Of a stretch of DNA of 64,000 nt, positions 24,575 through 32,922 are shown piece by piece. Position 1 is the stretch's first letter. Every line of letters starts with the position of its first letter. The translations under genes and the position numbers were made by a program. The DNA comes from Actinomycetota bacterium (GTDB lineage Bacteria; Actinomycetota; Actinomycetes; S36-B12): positions 306,337-370,336 of the forward strand of contig JADKGE010000003.1 of NCBI GenBank assembly GCA_016717115.1, read 5' to 3'. The notes beneath the pieces are model-generated. The model had not been told where the DNA came from. It did no database searches and saw only the letters and a list, made by a program, of their open reading frames with translations.

Positions 24575-24630
24575 AGGCTAGTCCTCCATCGGGGCCGCGA
24601 GGACGGGCCGCCTCTGGAAGGGTGTCCCTC

Positions 24631-25074
24631 ATGGAGGACACCGATCGACAGATCATCACCTTGCTGAGCACCGACGGCAGAATGTCCTTGGCCGACATCG
24701 CCCGCGAGACGGGCCTGTCCACGTCGGCCCTCCATCAGCGGGTCAGGCGACTGGAGCAGCGGGGCCTCATCATCGGGTACCGCGCCGAGGTCGACTACCG
24801 AGCCGTGGGGCTGCCTCTTGCGGCCTTCGTCTCGTTGACACCGATCGATCCGGCCGCGCCGGATGACGTCCCCGAACGGCTGGAGGGAATCTCGGAGATC
24901 GAGGCCTGCTGGTCTGTGGCTGGCTCGGAGGCGTACATCCTCAAGGTCCGGGTCGTCGAGCCGGCGGATCTGGAGGATCTCCTCGGTCGGATCCGGTCGG
25001 CGGCGAACGTGTCGACGCGCACCACGATCGTGCTCTCGACGCCCTTCGAGAACAGGCCGCCCGTCCTTCCATGA
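24631..25074 (+). CDS. Lrp/AsnC-family transcriptional regulator
   Basis: MEDTDRQIITLLSTDGRMSLADIARETGLSTSALHQRVRRLEQRGLI HTH plus a C-terminal RAM/AsnC_trans_reg domain. ATG 24631 has GGAAGGG 8 nt upstream. The track start is GTG 24622. Confidence 0.9.
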   Translation: MEDTDRQIITLLSTDGRMSLADIARETGLSTSALHQRVRRLEQRGLIIGYRAEVDYRAVGLPLAAFVSLTPIDPAAPDDVPERLEGISEIEACWSVAGSEAYILKVRVVEPADLEDLLGRIRSAANVSTRTTIVLSTPFENRPPVLP

Positions 25075-25111: not shown

Positions 25112-25612
25112 ATGGCCGATCGAACGAATGAGGCGTTCACGTCCGGCGACGAGTGGACACCTGTCTCGAGCAAGCTGACCACCGCGCGTCGGCTGCTACT
25201 GGGCCTCGCCTACCTCCTCGTGATCGCTGGGGTGGTGGCGCTGTTCGTCATCGGGCGAGTCCCCGAGTTCGTGGCGTGGACCGGGCTGGCCGTCGCCTTG
25301 GTGGGCTTCATCTGGCTGTGGTGGCTCATCGGGCGCCGCGTCCGGTCCTTCGGCTACTCGGAGCGAGGGGACGACCTCCTCGTCACGAGCGGCATCATGT
25401 TCCGCCGGCTGGTCATCGTGCCGTACGGCCGGATGCAGCTCGTCGACGTCAAGGCGGGTCCGATCGACCGCTGGATGGGCCTGACGACGGTCCAGCTCCA
25501 CACCGCCGCGGCCACGACCGACGCGGCCATCCCCGGCCTGGAGCCGCAGATCGCCGCGGACCTGCGGGACCGCCTCGCCCGGCGCGGCGAGCAGCGATCT
25601 GCCGGACTGTGA
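25112..25612 (+). CDS. PH-domain (bPH_2, YdbS-like) membrane protein
   Basis: 166 aa. Two TM helices, then RGDDLLVTSGIMFRRLVIVPYGRMQLVDVKAGPIDRWMGLTTVQLHTA, typical of bacterial PH (YdbS). Confidence 0.75.
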   Translation: MADRTNEAFTSGDEWTPVSSKLTTARRLLLGLAYLLVIAGVVALFVIGRVPEFVAWTGLAVALVGFIWLWWLIGRRVRSFGYSERGDDLLVTSGIMFRRLVIVPYGRMQLVDVKAGPIDRWMGLTTVQLHTAAATTDAAIPGLEPQIAADLRDRLARRGEQRSAGL

Positions 25613-25614
25613 CC

Positions 25615-27045
25615 ATGCCCGAACCGGAGCCCAGCCGGTCACCGCTGCCGTCGGCTGTCGGTGACGACCTCGGTCTCGGTCTGACCATCCCCGGGCGCGG
25701 ATCCGTCGATGAAGCCGGCCGCCGACAGGTCCATCCGATCTCACCGCTCGTCCATGGGGTGGGTGCCCTGCCCATCGGTTTCGTCATCGTGTTCGCCATG
25801 TCGGCGGGCGCCTTCGGGAGGTGGGGGCTGTCCGCGGGCGCGGTGATCGTCCTGCTCCTGATCGCCCTTCCCCTCGTCGTCGGGGCGTGGTCATACGTCG
25901 GCTGGCGGAACCTGTGGTTCTGGTTCGACGAGGACGGCGACTTCCGCGTCGACTCGGGCGTGCTGACCAAGCAGCAACGTCGCCTGCAGCTCAGCCGGCT
26001 CCAGTCGGTCGACGTGGCTCAGCCGCTCGTCGCGCGCCTGTTCTCGATGGCTGAGCTCACCGTCGAGGTGGCGGGAACGCAGGGCTCCCGGGTGAAGCTG
26101 CAGTTCCTTCAGCTCGCCGATGCTCGCGCCCTGCGGAGCGAGCTGCTGGCGCGAGCCGCCGGACTACGGCACGACGTGGGCGAGGCGCCCGAGGAGCCCG
26201 TGGCCACCGTGGCCCCACGCGACCTCGCCGTCTCGCTCCTGCTGCGCACGACGACCGCCTTCCTGCTCCTGCTGACCGCTGTGATCGTCGTCGGGACCGT
26301 CTGGAGCAGCGGGTGGGGTGGGCTCGTCCTAGCCCTGTTCACCGGTGGCCTGCCCGTGCTCATGGTCGTCGCCGAGTTCATCAAGTACTTCAACTTCACC
26401 GTGAGTCGGTCACCTGACGGGCTCCGGCTGCGGTTCGGGATGGCGAAGACGGAGACGCGCACCGTGCCGCCAGGTCGGGTGCAGGCCATCGAGTACGTCG
26501 AGCCGCTCCTGTGGCGGCACTGGGGATGGGTGCGCCTGCGGGTGAACATCGCCGGCGTCGGCGGCGAGGACTCGGGTGGTCAGAAGGAGGAGACGATCCT
26601 CGTCCCCGTGGCGACGCGAGCGGTGGCCGATGACATCGTCCAGCGGGTGCTGCCCGGTCTTGATCTGGGCGCTCTCAGCTGGACGACCGCGCCCGAGCGG
26701 AGCCGGCGGCGTTCTCCCATCCAGTGGCGCAACCTGGGCGTGGCGTGGGACGGATCGGTGTTCGCCACGCGCTGTGGTCGGCTCACCCGGCGCCTCACGG
26801 TGATCCCTCATGCCCGCACCCAGTCGGTCCGACTCACTCAGGGACCCTGGGAGCGCGCCCTCGATCTCGCGAGCGTCCACGTCGACTCGACACCCGGCCC
26901 GGTCAAGGTCTCCGGCCTGCACCTCGATGCGGTGGCCGCGCGAACGATCGCCGACGAGCAGTCGGCCCGTGCCGAGCGGGGTCGGTCCGAGGACCGGTCC
27001 ATTCGCTGGGCGGCAGGAGACGACGGCGACGACGCCGGTCCGTGA
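25615..27045 (+). CDS. PH-domain repeat (YdbT-like) membrane protein
   Basis: ATG 25615 lies 2 nt after the upstream stop. Repeated bPH_2-like units (LQLSRLQSVDVAQPLVARLFSMAELTVEVAG; GRVQAIEYVEPLLWRHWGWVRLRVNIAG; ARTQSVRLTQGPWERALDLASVHVDS). The track ORF start 25153 was rejected. Confidence 0.75.
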   Translation: MPEPEPSRSPLPSAVGDDLGLGLTIPGRGSVDEAGRRQVHPISPLVHGVGALPIGFVIVFAMSAGAFGRWGLSAGAVIVLLLIALPLVVGAWSYVGWRNLWFWFDEDGDFRVDSGVLTKQQRRLQLSRLQSVDVAQPLVARLFSMAELTVEVAGTQGSRVKLQFLQLADARALRSELLARAAGLRHDVGEAPEEPVATVAPRDLAVSLLLRTTTAFLLLLTAVIVVGTVWSSGWGGLVLALFTGGLPVLMVVAEFIKYFNFTVSRSPDGLRLRFGMAKTETRTVPPGRVQAIEYVEPLLWRHWGWVRLRVNIAGVGGEDSGGQKEETILVPVATRAVADDIVQRVLPGLDLGALSWTTAPERSRRRSPIQWRNLGVAWDGSVFATRCGRLTRRLTVIPHARTQSVRLTQGPWERALDLASVHVDSTPGPVKVSGLHLDAVAARTIADEQSARAERGRSEDRSIRWAAGDDGDDAGP

Positions 27046-27051
27046 CGTCGC

Positions 27052-28092
27052 TCAGCCGGACGCAGCCATCTCCGCACCGATCGCGGTGGCGAAGGCGTCG
27101 ACGTCGCTCTCGCTGGTGTCCCAGGAGCACATCCACCGCACTTCGCCGGTGCCCTGATCCCACGTGTAGAACCGGAAGCGCTCCTGGAGCCGGGCGGTGA
27201 CATCGGTCGGGAGCACGGCGAAGACCGCATTGGCCTGCACCGGGCGCACCACGGCCACACCCGGGATCTGCCGTACGCGCTCCTCGAGCAGGCGGGCCAT
27301 GGCGTTGGAGTGCCGGGCGTTGCGCAGCCACAGATCGTCGGACAGGAGCGCCACCAACTGCGCGCTGATGAAGCGCATCTTGCTCGCGAGCTGCATCGAG
27401 GACTTGCGGAGGAAGTCGACCCCGGGTGCGGCCGCCGGATTGAGCACGATGACCGCCTCACCCAGCATCAGGCCGTTCTTCGTGCCGCCGAACGACACCA
27501 CGTCGATGCCGGCGTCGGTGGTGAACTCGCGCAGTCCGGTGCCCAGGGAAGCCGCGGCATTCGCGATACGGGCTCCGTCGATGTGCACTCCCATGCGCAT
27601 CGAGTGCGCGTGGTCGGCGATGACGGCGACCTCATCGACCGAGTACAGGGTTCCCAGCTCGGTGGACTGGGTGATGGTGACGGCGCCGGGCTGGGCCCGA
27701 TGGACATCGCCGAATCCCCAGGCCTGGAGGTCGATCAGGTCGGGAGTGATCTTGCCATCGGGTGTCGGGATCGTCCACAGCTTGAGTCCGGCCCCATGCT
27801 CGGGCGCGCCACCCTCGTCGACGTTGACATGTGCCGTCGCGGCGCATACGACGGCTTCCCACCTGCGGGTCATGGCCTGCAGCGCGACCACATTCGCGCC
27901 AGTTCCGTTGAAGACGGGGAAGATCTCCGCGATCGGACCGAAGTGGTCCTTGACGAGGTCGGTCAGCCGGGTCGACGTCGCATCGTCGCCGTACGCCACG
28001 TCGTGCCCGACGTTCACCTCGTTGATGGCGGCCATCACCTCGGGGTGGATCCCCGCGTAGTTGTCGCTCGCGAAGCCGCGCCACGTCGTCAT
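27052..28092 (-). CDS. ltaE: Low-specificity L-threonine aldolase (PLP, beta-eliminating lyase fold)
   Basis: MTTWRGFASDNYAGIHPEVM...GTGANVVAL...SFGGTKNG (PLP lysine). ATGA overlap with the SDR stop. Trimmed from the 650-aa track ORF. Confidence 0.85.
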   Translation of the reverse strand: MTTWRGFASDNYAGIHPEVMAAINEVNVGHDVAYGDDATSTRLTDLVKDHFGPIAEIFPVFNGTGANVVALQAMTRRWEAVVCAATAHVNVDEGGAPEHGAGLKLWTIPTPDGKITPDLIDLQAWGFGDVHRAQPGAVTITQSTELGTLYSVDEVAVIADHAHSMRMGVHIDGARIANAAASLGTGLREFTTDAGIDVVSFGGTKNGLMLGEAVIVLNPAAAPGVDFLRKSSMQLASKMRFISAQLVALLSDDLWLRNARHSNAMARLLEERVRQIPGVAVVRPVQANAVFAVLPTDVTARLQERFRFYTWDQGTGEVRWMCSWDTSESDVDAFATAIGAEMAASG

Positions 28093-28799
28093 GCGGAAGC
28101 CGTCCCCGTCGTCAGGTCGAGGCGGGTGCCGTTGTCGATCGGCGTCGTGGCGGCGTGGGCGATGGCTGACGCAAGATCGCGCACATGGGTGTACCCCGGC
28201 CAGGACTTCTCCGGGTCGGCCGCGACCATCCGGTCGGTCAGGAGCGCCTTGACGGCGACCGTGACCGATGCTGACGCGGTGCCCCGGAAGTAGTCGGCCA
28301 CGCCCTCCATCCACGCCTCGGCTGCGCGCTTGGCCGCCGCGTAGGCGATGTTGCCTGCCGTGGGTGTGGCGGCAGCCGTGCTCGTGACCATGAAGATCCG
28401 CCCGGCCTCGGCCGACTTCACGGTCGGGCCGAAGACAGCGGTCAGGGAGGCGAGGGTGCCGACCACGGGCGGGTGGAGGGCGTTCCAGTTGTCGACCGAC
28501 GTGAGGCCGAGGCCTGGAGAGCCGCGCCAGCCGCCGACGAGATGGACCACGACGTCCGCCCGGCCAAGGCGCGCGACCACGTCGTCGTGCAGGGCAACGA
28601 CGGCGGTGACGTCGAGGAGATCGATGCCGTGGGCTTCGGCGGAGCGGCCCCCGGCGGTCACGGTGTCGGCGGCGGCCTGGGCGGACTCCAGCCGGGAATC
28701 CAGGATCACGACATGGAAGCTCTCGGCCGCCAGGGCGAGCGCGGCCGCCTCCCCGGCTCCGCCTGCTCCGGCGACGATGGCTACTCGGCCCGCCGTCAC
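28089..28799 (-). CDS. SDR-family oxidoreductase
   Basis: VTAGRVAIVAGAGGAGEAAALALA (Gly-rich NAD(P) motif), TSTAA...YAAAKRA (S...YxxxK). The GTG start overlaps the upstream TGA (GTGA at 28796-28799). Confidence 0.8.
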   Translation of the reverse strand: MTAGRVAIVAGAGGAGEAAALALAAESFHVVILDSRLESAQAAADTVTAGGRSAEAHGIDLLDVTAVVALHDDVVARLGRADVVVHLVGGWRGSPGLGLTSVDNWNALHPPVVGTLASLTAVFGPTVKSAEAGRIFMVTSTAAATPTAGNIAYAAAKRAAEAWMEGVADYFRGTASASVTVAVKALLTDRMVAADPEKSWPGYTHVRDLASAIAHAATTPIDNGTRLDLTTGTASA

Positions 28800-30901
28800 G
28801 CGGTGATCCCCGACGTGGCATCGATCGTCGTCGCCAGCTTCCGCTGGAGCGCGTCGTAGAAGACGTTGAGCGGGAACTCGTCCGGAAGCACGACGTCGAC
28901 CATAGCCTTCGGCTCCCCGTCGAGGGGAAGAGCCTGCGGGCCCTGGGCCCACATGGACAGCGGGTGCGGCTCGACCAGCGCGCTGACGAACTCGTGGGCG
29001 GCAATCCACTGGGCCACGCGCGATCGACCTATGCCGCCTCGGTAGAGGGCATCGACCTCGTCGCACAGCGCGATCATCGAATCGTTCACGCGGAACCAGT
29101 CGATCGTCAGCATGTTGTCCGTCCAGTGGAGAACACCGTCGCGGTGCAGCCAGGCGAAGATGATCTGGCCGCCGAGGCCGTCGTAGTTGCGCACGCGCGA
29201 GCCGGTGATCGTGAAGCGGAACAGTCGGTCGAACAGGATCGCGTAGCGGATGAAGCGGCCGAGGTGGATCTCCCGGGTGTCCAGGGCGATCGTCTCGCGG
29301 AACGTTGACAGGTCGCAGCGGAGCTCCTCCAGCGCGTACATCCAATAGGGCATCCGCTGCTTGATCATGAAGGGGTCGAAGGGCAGATCGCCGTGACTGT
29401 GAGTGCGGTCGTGGATGAGATCCCACAGGACGAACGTCTCCTGCGCGAGGCGCTGGTCGTTCAGGAGCAGGTCGGCGTCCGGAGGGAGGGAGAGTCGCAG
29501 GGTGTCCGCGGCGGCGCGTGACACGACGCGGAACCGCGCTGCCTCGCGGTCGCAGAAGATGCCGCCCCAGTGGAAGTCGGCCGTCTCGCGTGTGGCCACC
29601 GTCTCGGGGAACAAGACGGCCGAGTGCGTGTCGTACCCGCCCGTGAAGCCGACGAACTCGATGGGCACGAACGCCGCATTGACGTGGGAGCGCTCTTGCT
29701 CGGCGAGCCAGTCGGGCCAGAACGTCCGGACGACGACCGCTTCCAGGTTCCTGTTCGGGTTGCCGTTCTGGGTGTACATCGGGAAGACGGCGAAGTGCTC
29801 GATGCCGTCCTCACGTCGCATGTCGGGCCGGAAGAGCACAAGGGAGTCCAGGAAGTCCGGAACCGCGAATCCTCCCGCGGCCCAGGACTGCAGGTCGACG
29901 ATGGTCGCGGCCAGGTGGTCGGCCTGATGGGAGAAGCGCGGGGCGAGGGCCGCGATGGCCGACACCATGGTGTCGACGTACCCGCGTGCCGTGTCCGCGG
30001 AGTGCTCGGCGAGGTCGATCGAGCCGTCCTTGGCCTGCATGGGCCGCAATGCCTCGATGGCTCCGACCAGACTCGCCCAGGCGGCGTCGCCGTCGATCCA
30101 TGCGGCGGTCGATGCTGCCTGCGTGGGGGTGCAGGCGACGCGTCCACCCGCCGCCCACGTGACGATGTTCAGCCAGAGCTGCTCATGGCCGAGGGCAGTG
30201 ATCGAGTCGTCGCCGAAAAGATCCGAGTCCGACACGACGACCACGCGGCCCGCCGTGCCGGTGCTGGTCATGAGGAGGCCGGCGCGTGCCGGATCGGCCT
30301 CGTTCGACGTCTGCGCGACCGTCTCGATCACCGTGCCGTCGTCGTCGGCCACGGATCGCAGGGTTCCCGCCCGGTAGAAGCAGGCCTGGCCCACGCGGGC
30401 GGTGAGGTCGTGGCGCGCGCCGGGGATCAGATCGGCGAGCACCCAGGTGGGCACGTCCTTGTACGCGTGCGCAGGGTCCTGCACCGTCGTGCTCTCGATC
30501 TCGATGCCGAAGATGCCGGCGAGTTCGGCGAAGTTGTTGCCGTACTTCGCCTGCTCGGTCTCCGCGAGGATCACCACTCCTCCGCCCCCCGCGACGAAGC
30601 GCTTGATGGCCTTGATCTCCGGGAGGGTGAGACGCGGGTAACCCGTGCCCGTGGTGCGCTCCCACTCGTCATCGGCGGCATGCGGGATCACCAGGACGTC
30701 GGTGTCGGCGAGGGCCCGGTCGTCGACCGTGCCTTCCGCGTGGACGACGACGTCGAGACCGCTGCTGGCCAGAACGGCAGCAGCCCGCTCGTAGGACGCA
30801 TCGGCGGGGTTGACGGGATTCATCCGCGAGGCCACGTCGGACCGCGTGGACCACGCCTGACGGTGGGACTCGTCAACAAGGACGCGGGCAATCGGGCGCA
30901 T
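28796..30901 (-). CDS. Uncharacterised 701-aa two-domain protein (N-terminal flavodoxin/GATase1-like domain; C-terminal domain with HDxxH...EELRCD motif)
   Basis: Clean non-repetitive ORF with RBS GGAG upstream. N-domain DVLVIPHAADDEW...IKAIKRFVAGGGGVVILAE...VVVVSDSDLFGDD. C-domain DLIHDRTHSHGDLPFDPFMIKQRMPYWMYALEELRCD (coordinates 29312-29413). I cannot name the family with confidence. Confidence 0.8.
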   Translation of the reverse strand: MRPIARVLVDESHRQAWSTRSDVASRMNPVNPADASYERAAAVLASSGLDVVVHAEGTVDDRALADTDVLVIPHAADDEWERTTGTGYPRLTLPEIKAIKRFVAGGGGVVILAETEQAKYGNNFAELAGIFGIEIESTTVQDPAHAYKDVPTWVLADLIPGARHDLTARVGQACFYRAGTLRSVADDDGTVIETVAQTSNEADPARAGLLMTSTGTAGRVVVVSDSDLFGDDSITALGHEQLWLNIVTWAAGGRVACTPTQAASTAAWIDGDAAWASLVGAIEALRPMQAKDGSIDLAEHSADTARGYVDTMVSAIAALAPRFSHQADHLAATIVDLQSWAAGGFAVPDFLDSLVLFRPDMRREDGIEHFAVFPMYTQNGNPNRNLEAVVVRTFWPDWLAEQERSHVNAAFVPIEFVGFTGGYDTHSAVLFPETVATRETADFHWGGIFCDREAARFRVVSRAAADTLRLSLPPDADLLLNDQRLAQETFVLWDLIHDRTHSHGDLPFDPFMIKQRMPYWMYALEELRCDLSTFRETIALDTREIHLGRFIRYAILFDRLFRFTITGSRVRNYDGLGGQIIFAWLHRDGVLHWTDNMLTIDWFRVNDSMIALCDEVDALYRGGIGRSRVAQWIAAHEFVSALVEPHPLSMWAQGPQALPLDGEPKAMVDVVLPDEFPLNVFYDALQRKLATTIDATSGITA

Positions 30902-30940
30902 GGTTACTCCGACCGTGGAGAGGGATAATCGTCGAAAATC

Positions 30941-30969
30941 AGGCTAACAGACAGGAAAACTCGCGGCAA
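30941..30969 (-). promoter_or_regulatory. Candidate promoter of the 701-aa/SDR/ltaE operon
   Basis: Minus strand: TTGCCG, a 17-nt spacer, then TAGCCT. It sits in a locally AT-richer 120-nt leader region. Confidence 0.3.
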
Positions 30970-31022
30970 TCGGCGACATTCGACGCCTGTCATCCCGAAT
31001 CGCACCCGGCGGCGGGCCATCG

Positions 31023-31253
31023 TCACGGCGCGGGTGGATCCATCGTGCGCAGGCGGCGCCAGGTGTAGGCGCCCGCCGCGATGATGAGGCCGAACGCGAG
31101 CGTCAGCAGGATGGTCACGACGTCCCAGCCGAAGGCCACGATGCGGACGACCGCGGCCCCTCCCATCATCAGCGCGGCGAACGCCTGAAGGAACAGGGAG
31201 AACCTCAGTTGGCGTCGAGCCGAGGCCGGGCTGGGGGAGTATCCGTCGGACAT
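31023..31253 (-). CDS. Small two-TM membrane protein (hypothetical)
   Basis: 76 aa: MSDGYSPSPASARRQLRFSLFLQAFAALMMGGAAVVRIVAFGWDVVTILLTLAFGLIIAAGAYTWRRL. Two clear hydrophobic helices. Confidence 0.5.
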   Translation of the reverse strand: MSDGYSPSPASARRQLRFSLFLQAFAALMMGGAAVVRIVAFGWDVVTILLTLAFGLIIAAGAYTWRRLRTMDPPAP

Positions 31254-31279
31254 GGCCGAATCCTGTCACGCGCGGGCAG

Positions 31280-31882
31280 TCAGGGCCGCTGAGCGCTGCC
31301 GGCGTTCCAGCAGGTGATGACATGGTGCTCATGCTCGGAGCCGAGAGCCGACAGGCGGGCGGGACCGAGAGCGAACAGCCGTCCGTCGATGGGGGTCAGG
31401 CCCAACCACCGCGCGGTCAGGATGCGCAGGACGTGCGCGTGTGCGACGAGCACGCAGTCGCGGCCCGAGTCCAGTACGGGCAGGCACCGCTCGATGACCC
31501 GGTCCACCCGCCGGCCGACGTCCGGCAGCTGCTCGCCCGGCGTTTCTCCCGCCGGCACCGGGTGATCCCACACCAGCCAGTCGGGATCACCCAGGAGCAC
31601 GCGGATCTCGGCCGTGGTCAGCCCCTCCCATGCGCCGTAGTCCCACTCGCACAGGTCGTCGGTGATGTCGTCGGGCACCAGTCCGGCGGCGCGAGCGGTG
31701 TCCCGTGCCCGCTGCATGGGGCTGCACAGGATCAGGCCCGGGTGGATGGCGCCCACCTCAGGGGCGAGTGACTCCGCGTTCGCCATGCCGTCGGCTGTCA
31801 GTGGGATGTCCGTGCGTCCGGTGTGGCGACCGACGCGGCTCCACTCGGTCTCGCCATGCCGGATCAGCCAGATGTCACTCAC
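31280..31882 (-). CDS. Histidine phosphatase (phosphoglycerate mutase) family protein
   Basis: VSDIWLIRHGETEWS has the RHG catalytic motif, and AHAHVLR is also present. GTGA overlap with the upstream gene. Trimmed from the 494-aa track ORF. Confidence 0.8.
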   Translation of the reverse strand: MSDIWLIRHGETEWSRVGRHTGRTDIPLTADGMANAESLAPEVGAIHPGLILCSPMQRARDTARAAGLVPDDITDDLCEWDYGAWEGLTTAEIRVLLGDPDWLVWDHPVPAGETPGEQLPDVGRRVDRVIERCLPVLDSGRDCVLVAHAHVLRILTARWLGLTPIDGRLFALGPARLSALGSEHEHHVITCWNAGSAQRP

Positions 31883-32922
31883 GAGACCCGCTCCCTTCGG
31901 CGTCGCTCCCAGGTGAAGATACCCAGCGCGCCGAGGCCTGCGAGGAGTTGCGGCAGAAACCAGACCAGTCTCCAGATGAGGTCGGCCGCGATGGCCGTCG
32001 TCGACGTGGCCCCGAACTGGCGCAGCAGCAGGACGAGGGCTGCGTCGACGGTGCCCAGCCCGCCAGGCGTGATCGGGAAGCTGGTGAGCAGGAGGGCGAT
32101 GGCGTAGGCGGCGAACACCTCGACCCAGCTGAGCGGATCGGGAAAGGCGCCGAGTCCGGCGACGGCGGCCACCAGCACGAAGTACGGCATGACCTGAGCG
32201 GCCACGTTTGTCAGGGTGAGCGTCTTCCAGCGCTGGGCCACGCGCCCGCTCGCCTGCGCGTTGCACTCGGTCAGCCGGGCCTCGGTGTCGGGCGGTGTCC
32301 TCCGGAGCAGGCCCCACACCCGGGTGGCGGGCTTCTGCAGCCAGGCGCCGAGGCGGCGGGCCGAGTCGGCGCTCCGGAGCACCGATGCGATGGCGATGAT
32401 CGACGCCACGACGACGAGCAGGCCGACCATGGCCAGCGTCGTGTACCCGGCGGCGGACCTTCCCTCGGCGACGAGCAGGCCGACGGCGAGAGCGGGCGTG
32501 CCCAGCACCATGAGATAGGTCCAGATCGCGTCGGCGGAGACCGCGGCCGCGGCAGCGTTCGCTTTCACGCCGTAGAACGACAGGATCGAGAACTGCGTCC
32601 CGACCGCCACCGCGCCCCCGCCGGGTATCACGTTGCTGATGAGGAAGCCGGACTGCCGATCGACGAAGGCGTGCCGGTAGGGGAGTCCGGGGATGGCCGC
32701 GGTCGCGGTGAACGGGTACACGAGGATGTTCGCGAGTCCCGTCACGGCGAGAGCCCCCAGCCACAGGGGCGGGATGGATCGCAGTTCCTCGAGCGCCTGC
32801 TCGTACGTGCCGAGCTGCGGGAACAGGAACGCGAACACGGCGATCATGACGGCCAGGCCGACCGCGAATGCGATGACGGTGGACCTGCGGCTGCGACGAC
32901 GGGGCTCCGAAGGCGTCGTCAT
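31879..32922 (-). CDS. YbhN / lysylphosphatidylglycerol-synthase-TM-region family membrane protein
   Basis: 347 aa, about 8 TM helices. FLISNVIPGGGAVAVGTQF and ITPGGLGTVDAAL are typical of the UPF0104 flippase-like family. Confidence 0.6.
   Translation of the reverse strand: MTTPSEPRRRSRRSTVIAFAVGLAVMIAVFAFLFPQLGTYEQALEELRSIPPLWLGALAVTGLANILVYPFTATAAIPGLPYRHAFVDRQSGFLISNVIPGGGAVAVGTQFSILSFYGVKANAAAAAVSADAIWTYLMVLGTPALAVGLLVAEGRSAAGYTTLAMVGLLVVVASIIAIASVLRSADSARRLGAWLQKPATRVWGLLRRTPPDTEARLTECNAQASGRVAQRWKTLTLTNVAAQVMPYFVLVAAVAGLGAFPDPLSWVEVFAAYAIALLLTSFPITPGGLGTVDAALVLLLRQFGATSTTAIAADLIWRLVWFLPQLLAGLGALGIFTWERRRRERVS

Follow-up and report, generated by a model that had tools for sequence, protein, structure and literature searches.

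What would a two-domain protein of 701 amino acids (aa) do in an operon with a short-chain dehydrogenase/reductase (SDR) and a threonine aldolase? We sought to answer this question for a 64,000-nt stretch of contig JADKGE010000003.1 (assembly GCA_016717115.1) from an Actinomycetota bacterium (S36-B12), the whole of which is called the window here and has a GC content of approximately 70%. Three open reading frames (ORFs), all cleanly translated, form a chain on the minus strand of the window: the 701-aa two-domain protein (28796-30901, ATG start), the 236-aa SDR (28089-28799, GTG start) and a 346-aa predicted L-threonine aldolase (27052-28092, ATG start). The stop codon of the first gene and the GTG of the second overlap by 4 nt (GTGA, 28796-28799), and so do the stop codon of the second gene and the ATG of the third (ATGA, 28089-28092). 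The translational coupling proposed in a preliminary description of this DNA is borne out by these ORF coordinates. The 701-aa protein is almost certainly a member of the PolE family, and it is likely to be an Fe(II)/O2 oxidase that acts on an amino acid. The best explanation of the whole, which we favor with some reserve, is a two-domain PolE-family enzyme that oxidizes an amino acid with Fe(II), O2 and probably a pterin, and whose product the aldolase cleaves to glycine.

The PolE-family protein and its metal motif

The preliminary description could not place the 701-aa protein in a characterized family, a view that does not hold. Residues 273-701 (28796-30085 with the stop codon, minus strand), the predicted catalytic domain, match Pfam DUF6421 (PF19985) with an E value of 9e-196 and 651 bits against a cut-off of 25, covering positions 2-436 of the 437 in the profile. 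We found one paper that names DUF6421 (Nat Chem 2025; PMC12614342), and PolE is its studied member. PolE is the Fe(II)/O2/tetrahydrobiopterin (BH4)-dependent L-isoleucine 3,4-desaturase of the polyoxin pathway; its activity strictly needs Fe2+, O2 and BH4, and QDPR raises the reaction 2-3 fold (PMC12614342). The family has approximately 10,000 homologues, and many of them adjoin amino-acid-modifying enzymes (PMC12614342).

The solved PolE structures (9j2e, 9j2r, and 9j3g), whose PDB entries are titled 'Fe2+/pterin-dependent', are the only significant PDB sequence matches to the C-terminal domain; the best of them, 9j3g and 9j2e, are found at 3e-9 with the single sequence and at 1e-16 with a 60-sequence profile. 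An AlphaFold2 model of the 701-aa protein, built on the homologue alignment, has a mean pLDDT of 94.5 and a pTM of 0.92. When this model is used for the fold search that had been proposed as a check, PolE and DPP III are the top matches to the C-terminal domain. Foldseek ranks the PolE entries first (E values of 6e-15 to 6e-14, TM of 0.78-0.79 on PolE length; 9j3g with 5.7e-15 and a TM of 0.79 on target length over 422 aligned columns), and the next matches are DPP III structures (5zum, 4e-8; 6eom, 6e-8). The homologue search with the 701-aa protein returned over 5,500 sequences; each of the top 120 is approximately 700 aa in length, and apart from a few, some of them truncated, they have both DUF4350 and DUF6421. 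At 50% identity, the DUF6421 family falls into 915 clusters.

The segment IHDRTHSHG...EELRCD covers residues 496-530, and its metal motif, H497-D498-x-x-H501 ... E525-E526-x-R528-x-D530, was delimited by conservation and by alignment to PolE. The translation confirms that H497-D530 is encoded at 29312-29413 (minus strand), the position previously given. Conservation was counted in 60 homologues with identities from 77% to 28%. E525, E526, R528, D530, D558, R559, R562, and Q579 are invariant in 60/60, and H497, H501, and D498 are found in 58, 58, and 57 of the sequences, respectively. Among the residues whose conservation had been put forward as a check, H497, H501, E525, E526, and D530 are thus kept (58-60 of 60), whereas H503 is variable (H in 22, R in 22, and K in 4 of 60) and is not a ligand because it is not conserved.

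In the profile alignment to PolE, HDrtH corresponds to HEyHH, LEELRcD to LEELRVD, DRlfRF to ERLLRY, NYDgLaGQ to NYDAVASQ, and lFPE to LFPE. The two proteins therefore have in common not only the Pfam family and the fold, but also His-x3-His...Glu, LEELRxD, (D/E)RxxR(F/Y), NYD...Q, and LFPE. F140 and Y280 of SnPolE, which are mutated according to the titles of PDB entries, correspond to the conserved F431 and Y573, and SnPolE Y157 corresponds to I448. HE/DxxHx(21-23)E has been reported as the conserved DUF6421 motif, and the soluble mutants of the HExxHxnE motif of PolE show no detectable activity, E203A being insoluble (PMC12614342). In the 701-aa protein, E525 lies x23 and E526 x24 after H501. 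Two residues are deleted in PolE ahead of the EE pair, which brings its ligand Glu into register with E526, and on this alignment E526 is more likely the ligand than E525. E526 is the second Glu of the EE pair, as in the EExxAE motif of DPP III.

The preliminary description had compared this site to a gluzincin-type or DPP III-like metal site. One part of the comparison stands: conserved His, His, and Glu residues sit on a DPP III-like fold, and the two His and the second Glu of the EE pair are the likely metal ligands, as in a protein of related fold (DPP III, MEROPS M49). With its EE pair but an Asp at the last position, EELRCD agrees with EExxAE only in part. The other part, a zinc enzyme, is very unlikely to hold; PolE is an Fe(II)/pterin oxidase and not a zinc hydrolase. 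DUF6421 is structurally homologous to DPP III but has neither its HExxGH motif nor its catalytic His (PMC12614342). Unlike DPP III, which is a zinc peptidase with HExxGH and EExxAE, the 701-aa protein lacks HExxGH and a general-base Glu and does not match Pfam M49. By analogy with PolE, we infer that the site would hold iron rather than zinc.

Two DUF6421 representatives depart from this motif. P0137 (674 aa) and P0177 (437 aa) lack H497, D498, and H501 (RARAR / RRGDS) and retain the EE..R..D block. Sequencing artefacts could explain this, or the two may be paralogues without activity.

The N-terminal part of the protein (approximately residues 1-258; 30128-30901, minus strand) is a GIFT/ThuA/DUF4350-like, class-I-GATase-like domain according to Pfam, Foldseek, and profile searches, in agreement with the class-I-amidotransferase-like alpha/beta fold noticed earlier. 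Residues 90-246 give weak Pfam matches to DUF4350, ABC_transp_aux, IFT52_GIFT, and ThuA; PF14258 reaches 29.8 bits, just below its cut-off of 30.4, and is recorded on most homologues. Foldseek finds the IFT52 N-terminal domain (5fmr/5fms, E values of 5e-10 to 3e-9) and also OST48, the ThuA-like 1t0b, and the GH42 trimerization domain, and a PDB profile search finds IFT52 at 7e-11. The near-invariant positions of the domain (D68, G107, G218, D225, and D227) include neither Cys nor His. A catalytic class I glutamine amidotransferase was considered and rejected because the domain has no conserved Cys or His, the 701-aa protein has no GATase match in Pfam, and the best folds are the non-catalytic GIFT/ThuA-like ones; the domain is probably non-catalytic. 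It has its fold in common with the GIFT domain of IFT52/GldG and with ThuA-like proteins, but here it is fused to a predicted oxidase domain. In an unrooted tree of the C-terminal domain, single-domain proteins nest among two-domain ones, indicating that the N-terminal domain has been gained or lost at least two times and is not needed for the core function.

Conservation of the operon and its regulator

The 346-aa product matches Pfam Beta_elim_lyase (PF01212) at 6e-49. Its closest solved relatives are the L-threonine aldolases 5vye (1.3e-86, residues 6-338) and 7w0i (1e-78), and the Pseudomonas putida aldolase 1v72 matches at 6e-72. By these sequence matches it is an L-threonine aldolase, a pyridoxal phosphate (PLP) enzyme of fold-type I, with a candidate PLP lysine in the segment GGTKNG. 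The gene is single copy: no other threonine-aldolase homologue was found in the source genome (3.9 Mb, 91% complete). One Streptomyces-like genome (G054) has a second threonine aldolase away from the operon (C1:914515-915534).

To place the operon among its relatives, 80 genomic loci were fetched from Actinomycetota, including Nanopelagicales, Rhodoluna, Aquiluna, Microbacteriaceae, Actinocorallia, Actinomadura, Sciscionella, Acidothermaceae, and many metagenome-assembled genomes, and 72 of them have enough downstream DNA. The results show that a threonine aldolase gene lies downstream of the DUF6421 gene in 70/72 loci, directly in 12 and after one intervening gene in 58. The order DUF6421-SDR-aldolase is found in 44 of the 72 loci, a gene for an Lrp/AsnC-family regulator stands between DUF6421 and aldolase in 14, and in 12 the aldolase follows DUF6421 with no gene between them. 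Of the remaining two loci, one has the aldolase divergently upstream and the other has an SDR but no aldolase. Of the 70 loci with a downstream aldolase, 26 lack the SDR, which is an optional component. The three-gene arrangement, whose conservation had been put forward as a check, is conserved.

We also examined co-occurrence in a sample of 301 genomes evenly drawn from the phylum. DUF6421 is present in 13 of them, including 8/8 of one genus with genomes of 7-10 Mb, and all 13 have an aldolase at least 55% identical. At least nine genomes of the sample have such an aldolase but no DUF6421, indicating that the oxidase depends on the aldolase and not the reverse.

In the large (7-10 Mb) Streptomyces-like genomes (G054, G024, G282, and others), a single-domain DUF6421 protein that is 56% identical to the C-terminal domain is followed by an orthologous SDR (approximately 40% identity) and a threonine aldolase (approximately 64%). 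These loci have the same three genes with the identical 4-nt stop/start overlaps, but their DUF6421 protein has no GIFT-like N-terminal domain, and no separate copy of that domain is encoded nearby. At the other end of the size range, the operon is retained in streamlined genomes of 1.1-1.4 Mb. All-against-all ORF clustering over 87 stretches (86 loci and the window) showed that, apart from the SDR, the aldolase, and Lrp, no neighbor is broadly conserved; what else clustered was opposite-strand shadow ORFs or local synteny.

Two loci are unusual. One genome (L105, G009 contig C17) has a second DUF6421 copy followed by an SDR and no aldolase. In a genome of another class (G236 contig C10, 28800-42000; L106), a two-domain DUF6421 gene and the aldolase are each broken into 2-3 adjacent frame-shifted pieces, which could be assembly indels or operon decay.

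In the window, the gene for an Lrp/AsnC-family regulator (24622-25074, plus strand; Pfam HTH_AsnC-type and AsnC_trans_reg) is convergent with the operon and lies approximately 2 kb beyond the aldolase. Its product is 60% identical over 150 aa to the Rhodoluna Lrp encoded between DUF6421 and aldolase, and by this similarity it is the orthologue of the regulator that other lineages have within the operon or adjacent to it. The orthologue is linked in 39/80 loci and occurs in three arrangements: inside the operon, convergent right after the aldolase, or convergent approximately one gene further, as in the window. Lrp/AsnC-family regulators typically sense amino acids, and for this reason the linkage fits an amino-acid substrate, which the linked regulator probably senses.

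The leader of the operon (30902-31023, minus strand), which separates the ATG from a small membrane-protein ORF upstream by approximately 120 nt, contains TTGCCG-17-TAGCCT and a GGAG ribosome-binding site. The promoter-like element is present upstream of the ATG as had been described, but a sigma-70 consensus scan gives 0 sites against 0.2 expected by chance, and we regard the element as a weak lead at most because it fails this simple scan. The leader is indeed richer in AT, but only slightly (GC of 0.656 versus about 0.70). An Rfam scan of 26500-31800 gave no riboswitch or leader RNA match, and a terminator scan found nothing. Further upstream on the same strand are a small predicted membrane protein of approximately 76 aa (about 31024-31253, minus strand) and a 494-aa open frame, the longest ORF call (31280-32764, minus strand), whose last 190 residues are a histidine-phosphatase domain and whose preceding approximately 290 residues have no Pfam match; synteny of these two is confined to close relatives. 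On the other side, the interval that separates the operon from the Lrp/AsnC gene encodes a 630-aa protein (25153-27045, plus strand) in which three bacterial PH (bPH_2) domains are recognized. It is convergent with the aldolase, the stop codons are 6 bp apart (27045 and 27052), and no terminator-like hairpin was found between the two genes.

The reductases and the pterin context

The 236-aa product is a classical SDR (adh_short, 5e-20), and in an alignment of 19 orthologues HLVGGW, Y153, and K157 (Y153xxxK157) are invariant. Its model has a pLDDT of 93.3, and the fold search returns a flat list of generic FabG/7alpha-HSDH-like reductases with Z of 27-29; the top 50 fold matches, which all tie at these Z values, do not include QDPR. 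In profile searches, QDPR is matched near full length at 2e-11 to 7e-10 (8b5t, 2e-11; 1dhr, 2e-10), and 3rkr (1e-20), 7alpha-HSDH, and YciK score higher. The GGW segment aligns to VAGGWAGG of the QDPR structure 8b5t, and the Trp of this segment matters for pterin binding in QDPR. The segment, profile, and fold searches gave suggestive motifs only, and we do not claim that the SDR is QDPR.

Genomes with an SDR-less operon have no SDR orthologue elsewhere. In 10 of the 26 SDR-less operons, all from related lineages, a nitroreductase-family gene lies directly after the aldolase (9724-10308 of L019, plus strand; equivalents in L020, L022, L025, L026, L029, L033, L048, L060, and L062). Its best NCBIfam match is NfsB-type and its second is RutE (malonic semialdehyde reductase), both far under the curated cut-offs. 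The nitroreductase may be a non-orthologous replacement of the SDR. Pterin recycling and aldehyde reduction would suit it to the same degree: dihydropteridine reductases have been reported in both the SDR and the nitroreductase families, RutE is a precedent for aldehyde reduction in the nitroreductase family, and there is precedent for an SDR as aldehyde reductase.

The source genome has a gene for pterin-4a-carbinolamine dehydratase (PCD), and no aromatic amino acid hydroxylase was found in it, a combination that speaks indirectly for a pterin-dependent oxidase. Its sole PCD continues into a C-terminal Glyoxalase_6 (VOC) domain within a single open frame of 247 aa (583-1326 of L081, contig C6, minus strand). 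PCD is present in 7/8 genomes with an SDR in the operon versus 2/8 without, no more than a hint of co-occurrence in so few genomes, for which phylogeny and genome size are confounders. All five streamlined operon-bearing genomes tested (1.1-1.4 Mb) have GTP cyclohydrolase I, so pterin dependence is not refuted.

The proposed reaction and its alternatives

Taken together with what is known of PolE, these observations suggest the following scheme. In the C-terminal domain, against which the GIFT/ThuA-like, non-catalytic N-terminal domain would pack, H497, H501, and E526 (or E525) would form a mononuclear non-haem Fe(II) site on the DPP III-like fold. By analogy with PolE, the 701-aa enzyme would use O2 and probably a reduced pterin to oxidize a free L-amino acid at an unactivated C-H bond, by hydroxylation or desaturation at C-beta or C-gamma. 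The coupled aldolase would then most likely cleave the resulting beta-hydroxy-alpha-amino acid to glycine and an aldehyde or ketone, and the optional SDR would either re-reduce the oxidized pterin, as QDPR does, or reduce the carbonyl product. The specific step in which the oxidase makes a beta-hydroxy amino acid and the aldolase splits it to glycine and a carbonyl compound is put forward tentatively, at somewhat less than an even chance. What the analysis shows is the family, the fold, and the conservation of motif and operon, whereas pterin use, the order of the steps and the substrate, like the iron, are inferred. The preliminary description had suggested a small pathway acting on a beta-hydroxy-amino-acid-like or amino-alcohol compound, and a route through a beta-hydroxy amino acid stays the most plausible logic.

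Carnitine biosynthesis offers a parallel, in which trimethyllysine hydroxylase is followed by HTML aldolase and then by a dehydrogenase. The order proposed here is the same, namely iron-dependent beta-hydroxylation, PLP-dependent retro-aldol cleavage to glycine and an aldehyde, and a redox step on that aldehyde. The parallel is an analogy only: the hydroxylase of the carnitine route is a 2-oxoglutarate dioxygenase of unrelated fold, and we have no evidence pointing to trimethyllysine as the substrate in the present case.

Several observations weigh against the proposed scheme. The structural alignment to PolE gives only 16-17% identity, this clade has HDxxH where PolE has HExxH, and PolE is a desaturase of an antibiotic cluster without an aldolase partner. 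The SDR is not specifically QDPR-like, its best matches being generic ketoreductases. The PCD gene is missing from six of the 16 operon-bearing genomes tested, and because of this and the absence of the SDR from 26/70 loci, a dedicated pterin-recycling module is not universal. PolE also differs in architecture and setting: the catalytic domain here is approximately 55 residues longer and is preceded by an extra domain of approximately 260 aa, and whereas PolE has the HDO partner PolF in its antibiotic cluster, the 701-aa protein belongs to a phylum-conserved operon with a threonine aldolase.

Threonine aldolases are reversible, and the closest solved relatives of the 346-aa product are L-threonine aldolases, so the route could also run in the opposite direction. 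The aldolase would then condense glycine with an aldehyde to a beta-hydroxy amino acid, or supply glycine or acetaldehyde from threonine, and the DUF6421 enzyme would oxidize the product before the SDR acts, making the pathway biosynthetic, as that of PolE itself is. The gene order, with the oxidase first and the aldolase last, is silent on the order of reactions. We consider this reversed order unlikely, given that the operon is kept in the 1.1-1.4 Mb streamlined genomes and has no other conserved biosynthetic neighbors. In addition, the aldolase occurs without DUF6421 while no DUF6421-positive genome is without the aldolase, a distribution that an accessory enzyme feeding a general aldolase fits at least as well.

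The co-substrate of an Fe(II) oxygenase could also be something other than a pterin, for example 2-oxoglutarate or ascorbate, with the SDR, or the nitroreductase in SDR-less operons, simply detoxifying the aldehyde that the aldolase releases. Relatives by motif that have been cited are the HExxH Fe/2-oxoglutarate oxygenases (PMC12614342), and such a division of labor would accommodate the nitroreductase after the aldolase in 10 SDR-less operons with RutE as its second-best NCBIfam match, the generic ketoreductase fold of the SDR, and the six operon-bearing genomes without PCD. On the other hand, residues shared with PolE occur far outside the metal ligands, an argument for an identical set of cofactors, and PolE has no 2-oxoglutarate-binding basic residues (PMC12614342). 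The SDR has the GGW motif and near-full-length profile matches with QDPR, and the nitroreductase family also includes dihydropteridine reductases. A non-pterin co-substrate appears rather improbable, and pterin use, by analogy with PolE, is the assignment we prefer. A zinc metallopeptidase of the DPP III/gluzincin type, releasing an amino acid or dipeptide for the aldolase, is very unlikely, for although DPP III is the next-best fold after PolE and HxxxH...EE looks like the DPP III motifs, the first His is not followed by a Glu (HD in 57/60, with Asp at position 498), which leaves the site without the general base of zincins, no peptidase family is among the Pfam matches at E values up to 0.1, and DUF6421, whose studied member is an Fe/pterin oxidase, lacks HExxGH and the catalytic His of DPP III (PMC12614342).

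The text and supplementary files of the PolE paper (PMC12614342) contain no mention of the aldolase pairing or of the DUF4350 fusion, and our literature search turned up nothing published about the three-gene unit or that fusion. New here are the counts of operon arrangements, the three-gene unit with a single-domain protein in Streptomyces-like genomes, the linkage of an Lrp/AsnC regulator, the finding that the oxidase depends on the aldolase but not vice versa, the nitroreductase-family gene as an alternative, and the assignment of E526.

DUF6421 is a large family with one studied member, PolE, which is atypical in serving an antibiotic pathway, whereas the 701-aa protein represents the dominant clade, which has the look of a housekeeping one. 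It is conceivable, though doubtful, that the main DUF6421 clade, together with the threonine aldolase and often Lrp/AsnC, constitutes an undescribed primary-metabolic route of Actinomycetota, from Streptomyces to the 1.1-Mb freshwater Rhodoluna, in which Fe/pterin-dependent beta-hydroxylation of a common amino acid is followed by its splitting to glycine and a carbonyl compound. If true, glycine would be made, or an aliphatic amino acid degraded, by an O2-dependent route, and a bacterial non-aromatic pterin-dependent oxygenase would have its first housekeeping role. Such a route would also add a new oxygen-dependent link between amino acids and glycine in an ecologically and industrially important phylum. 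The aldolase pairing (70/72), the amino-acid-type regulator, and the retention in small genomes yield a testable hypothesis for most of the DUF6421 family, for which the cultivable Streptomyces orthologues are available as test systems.

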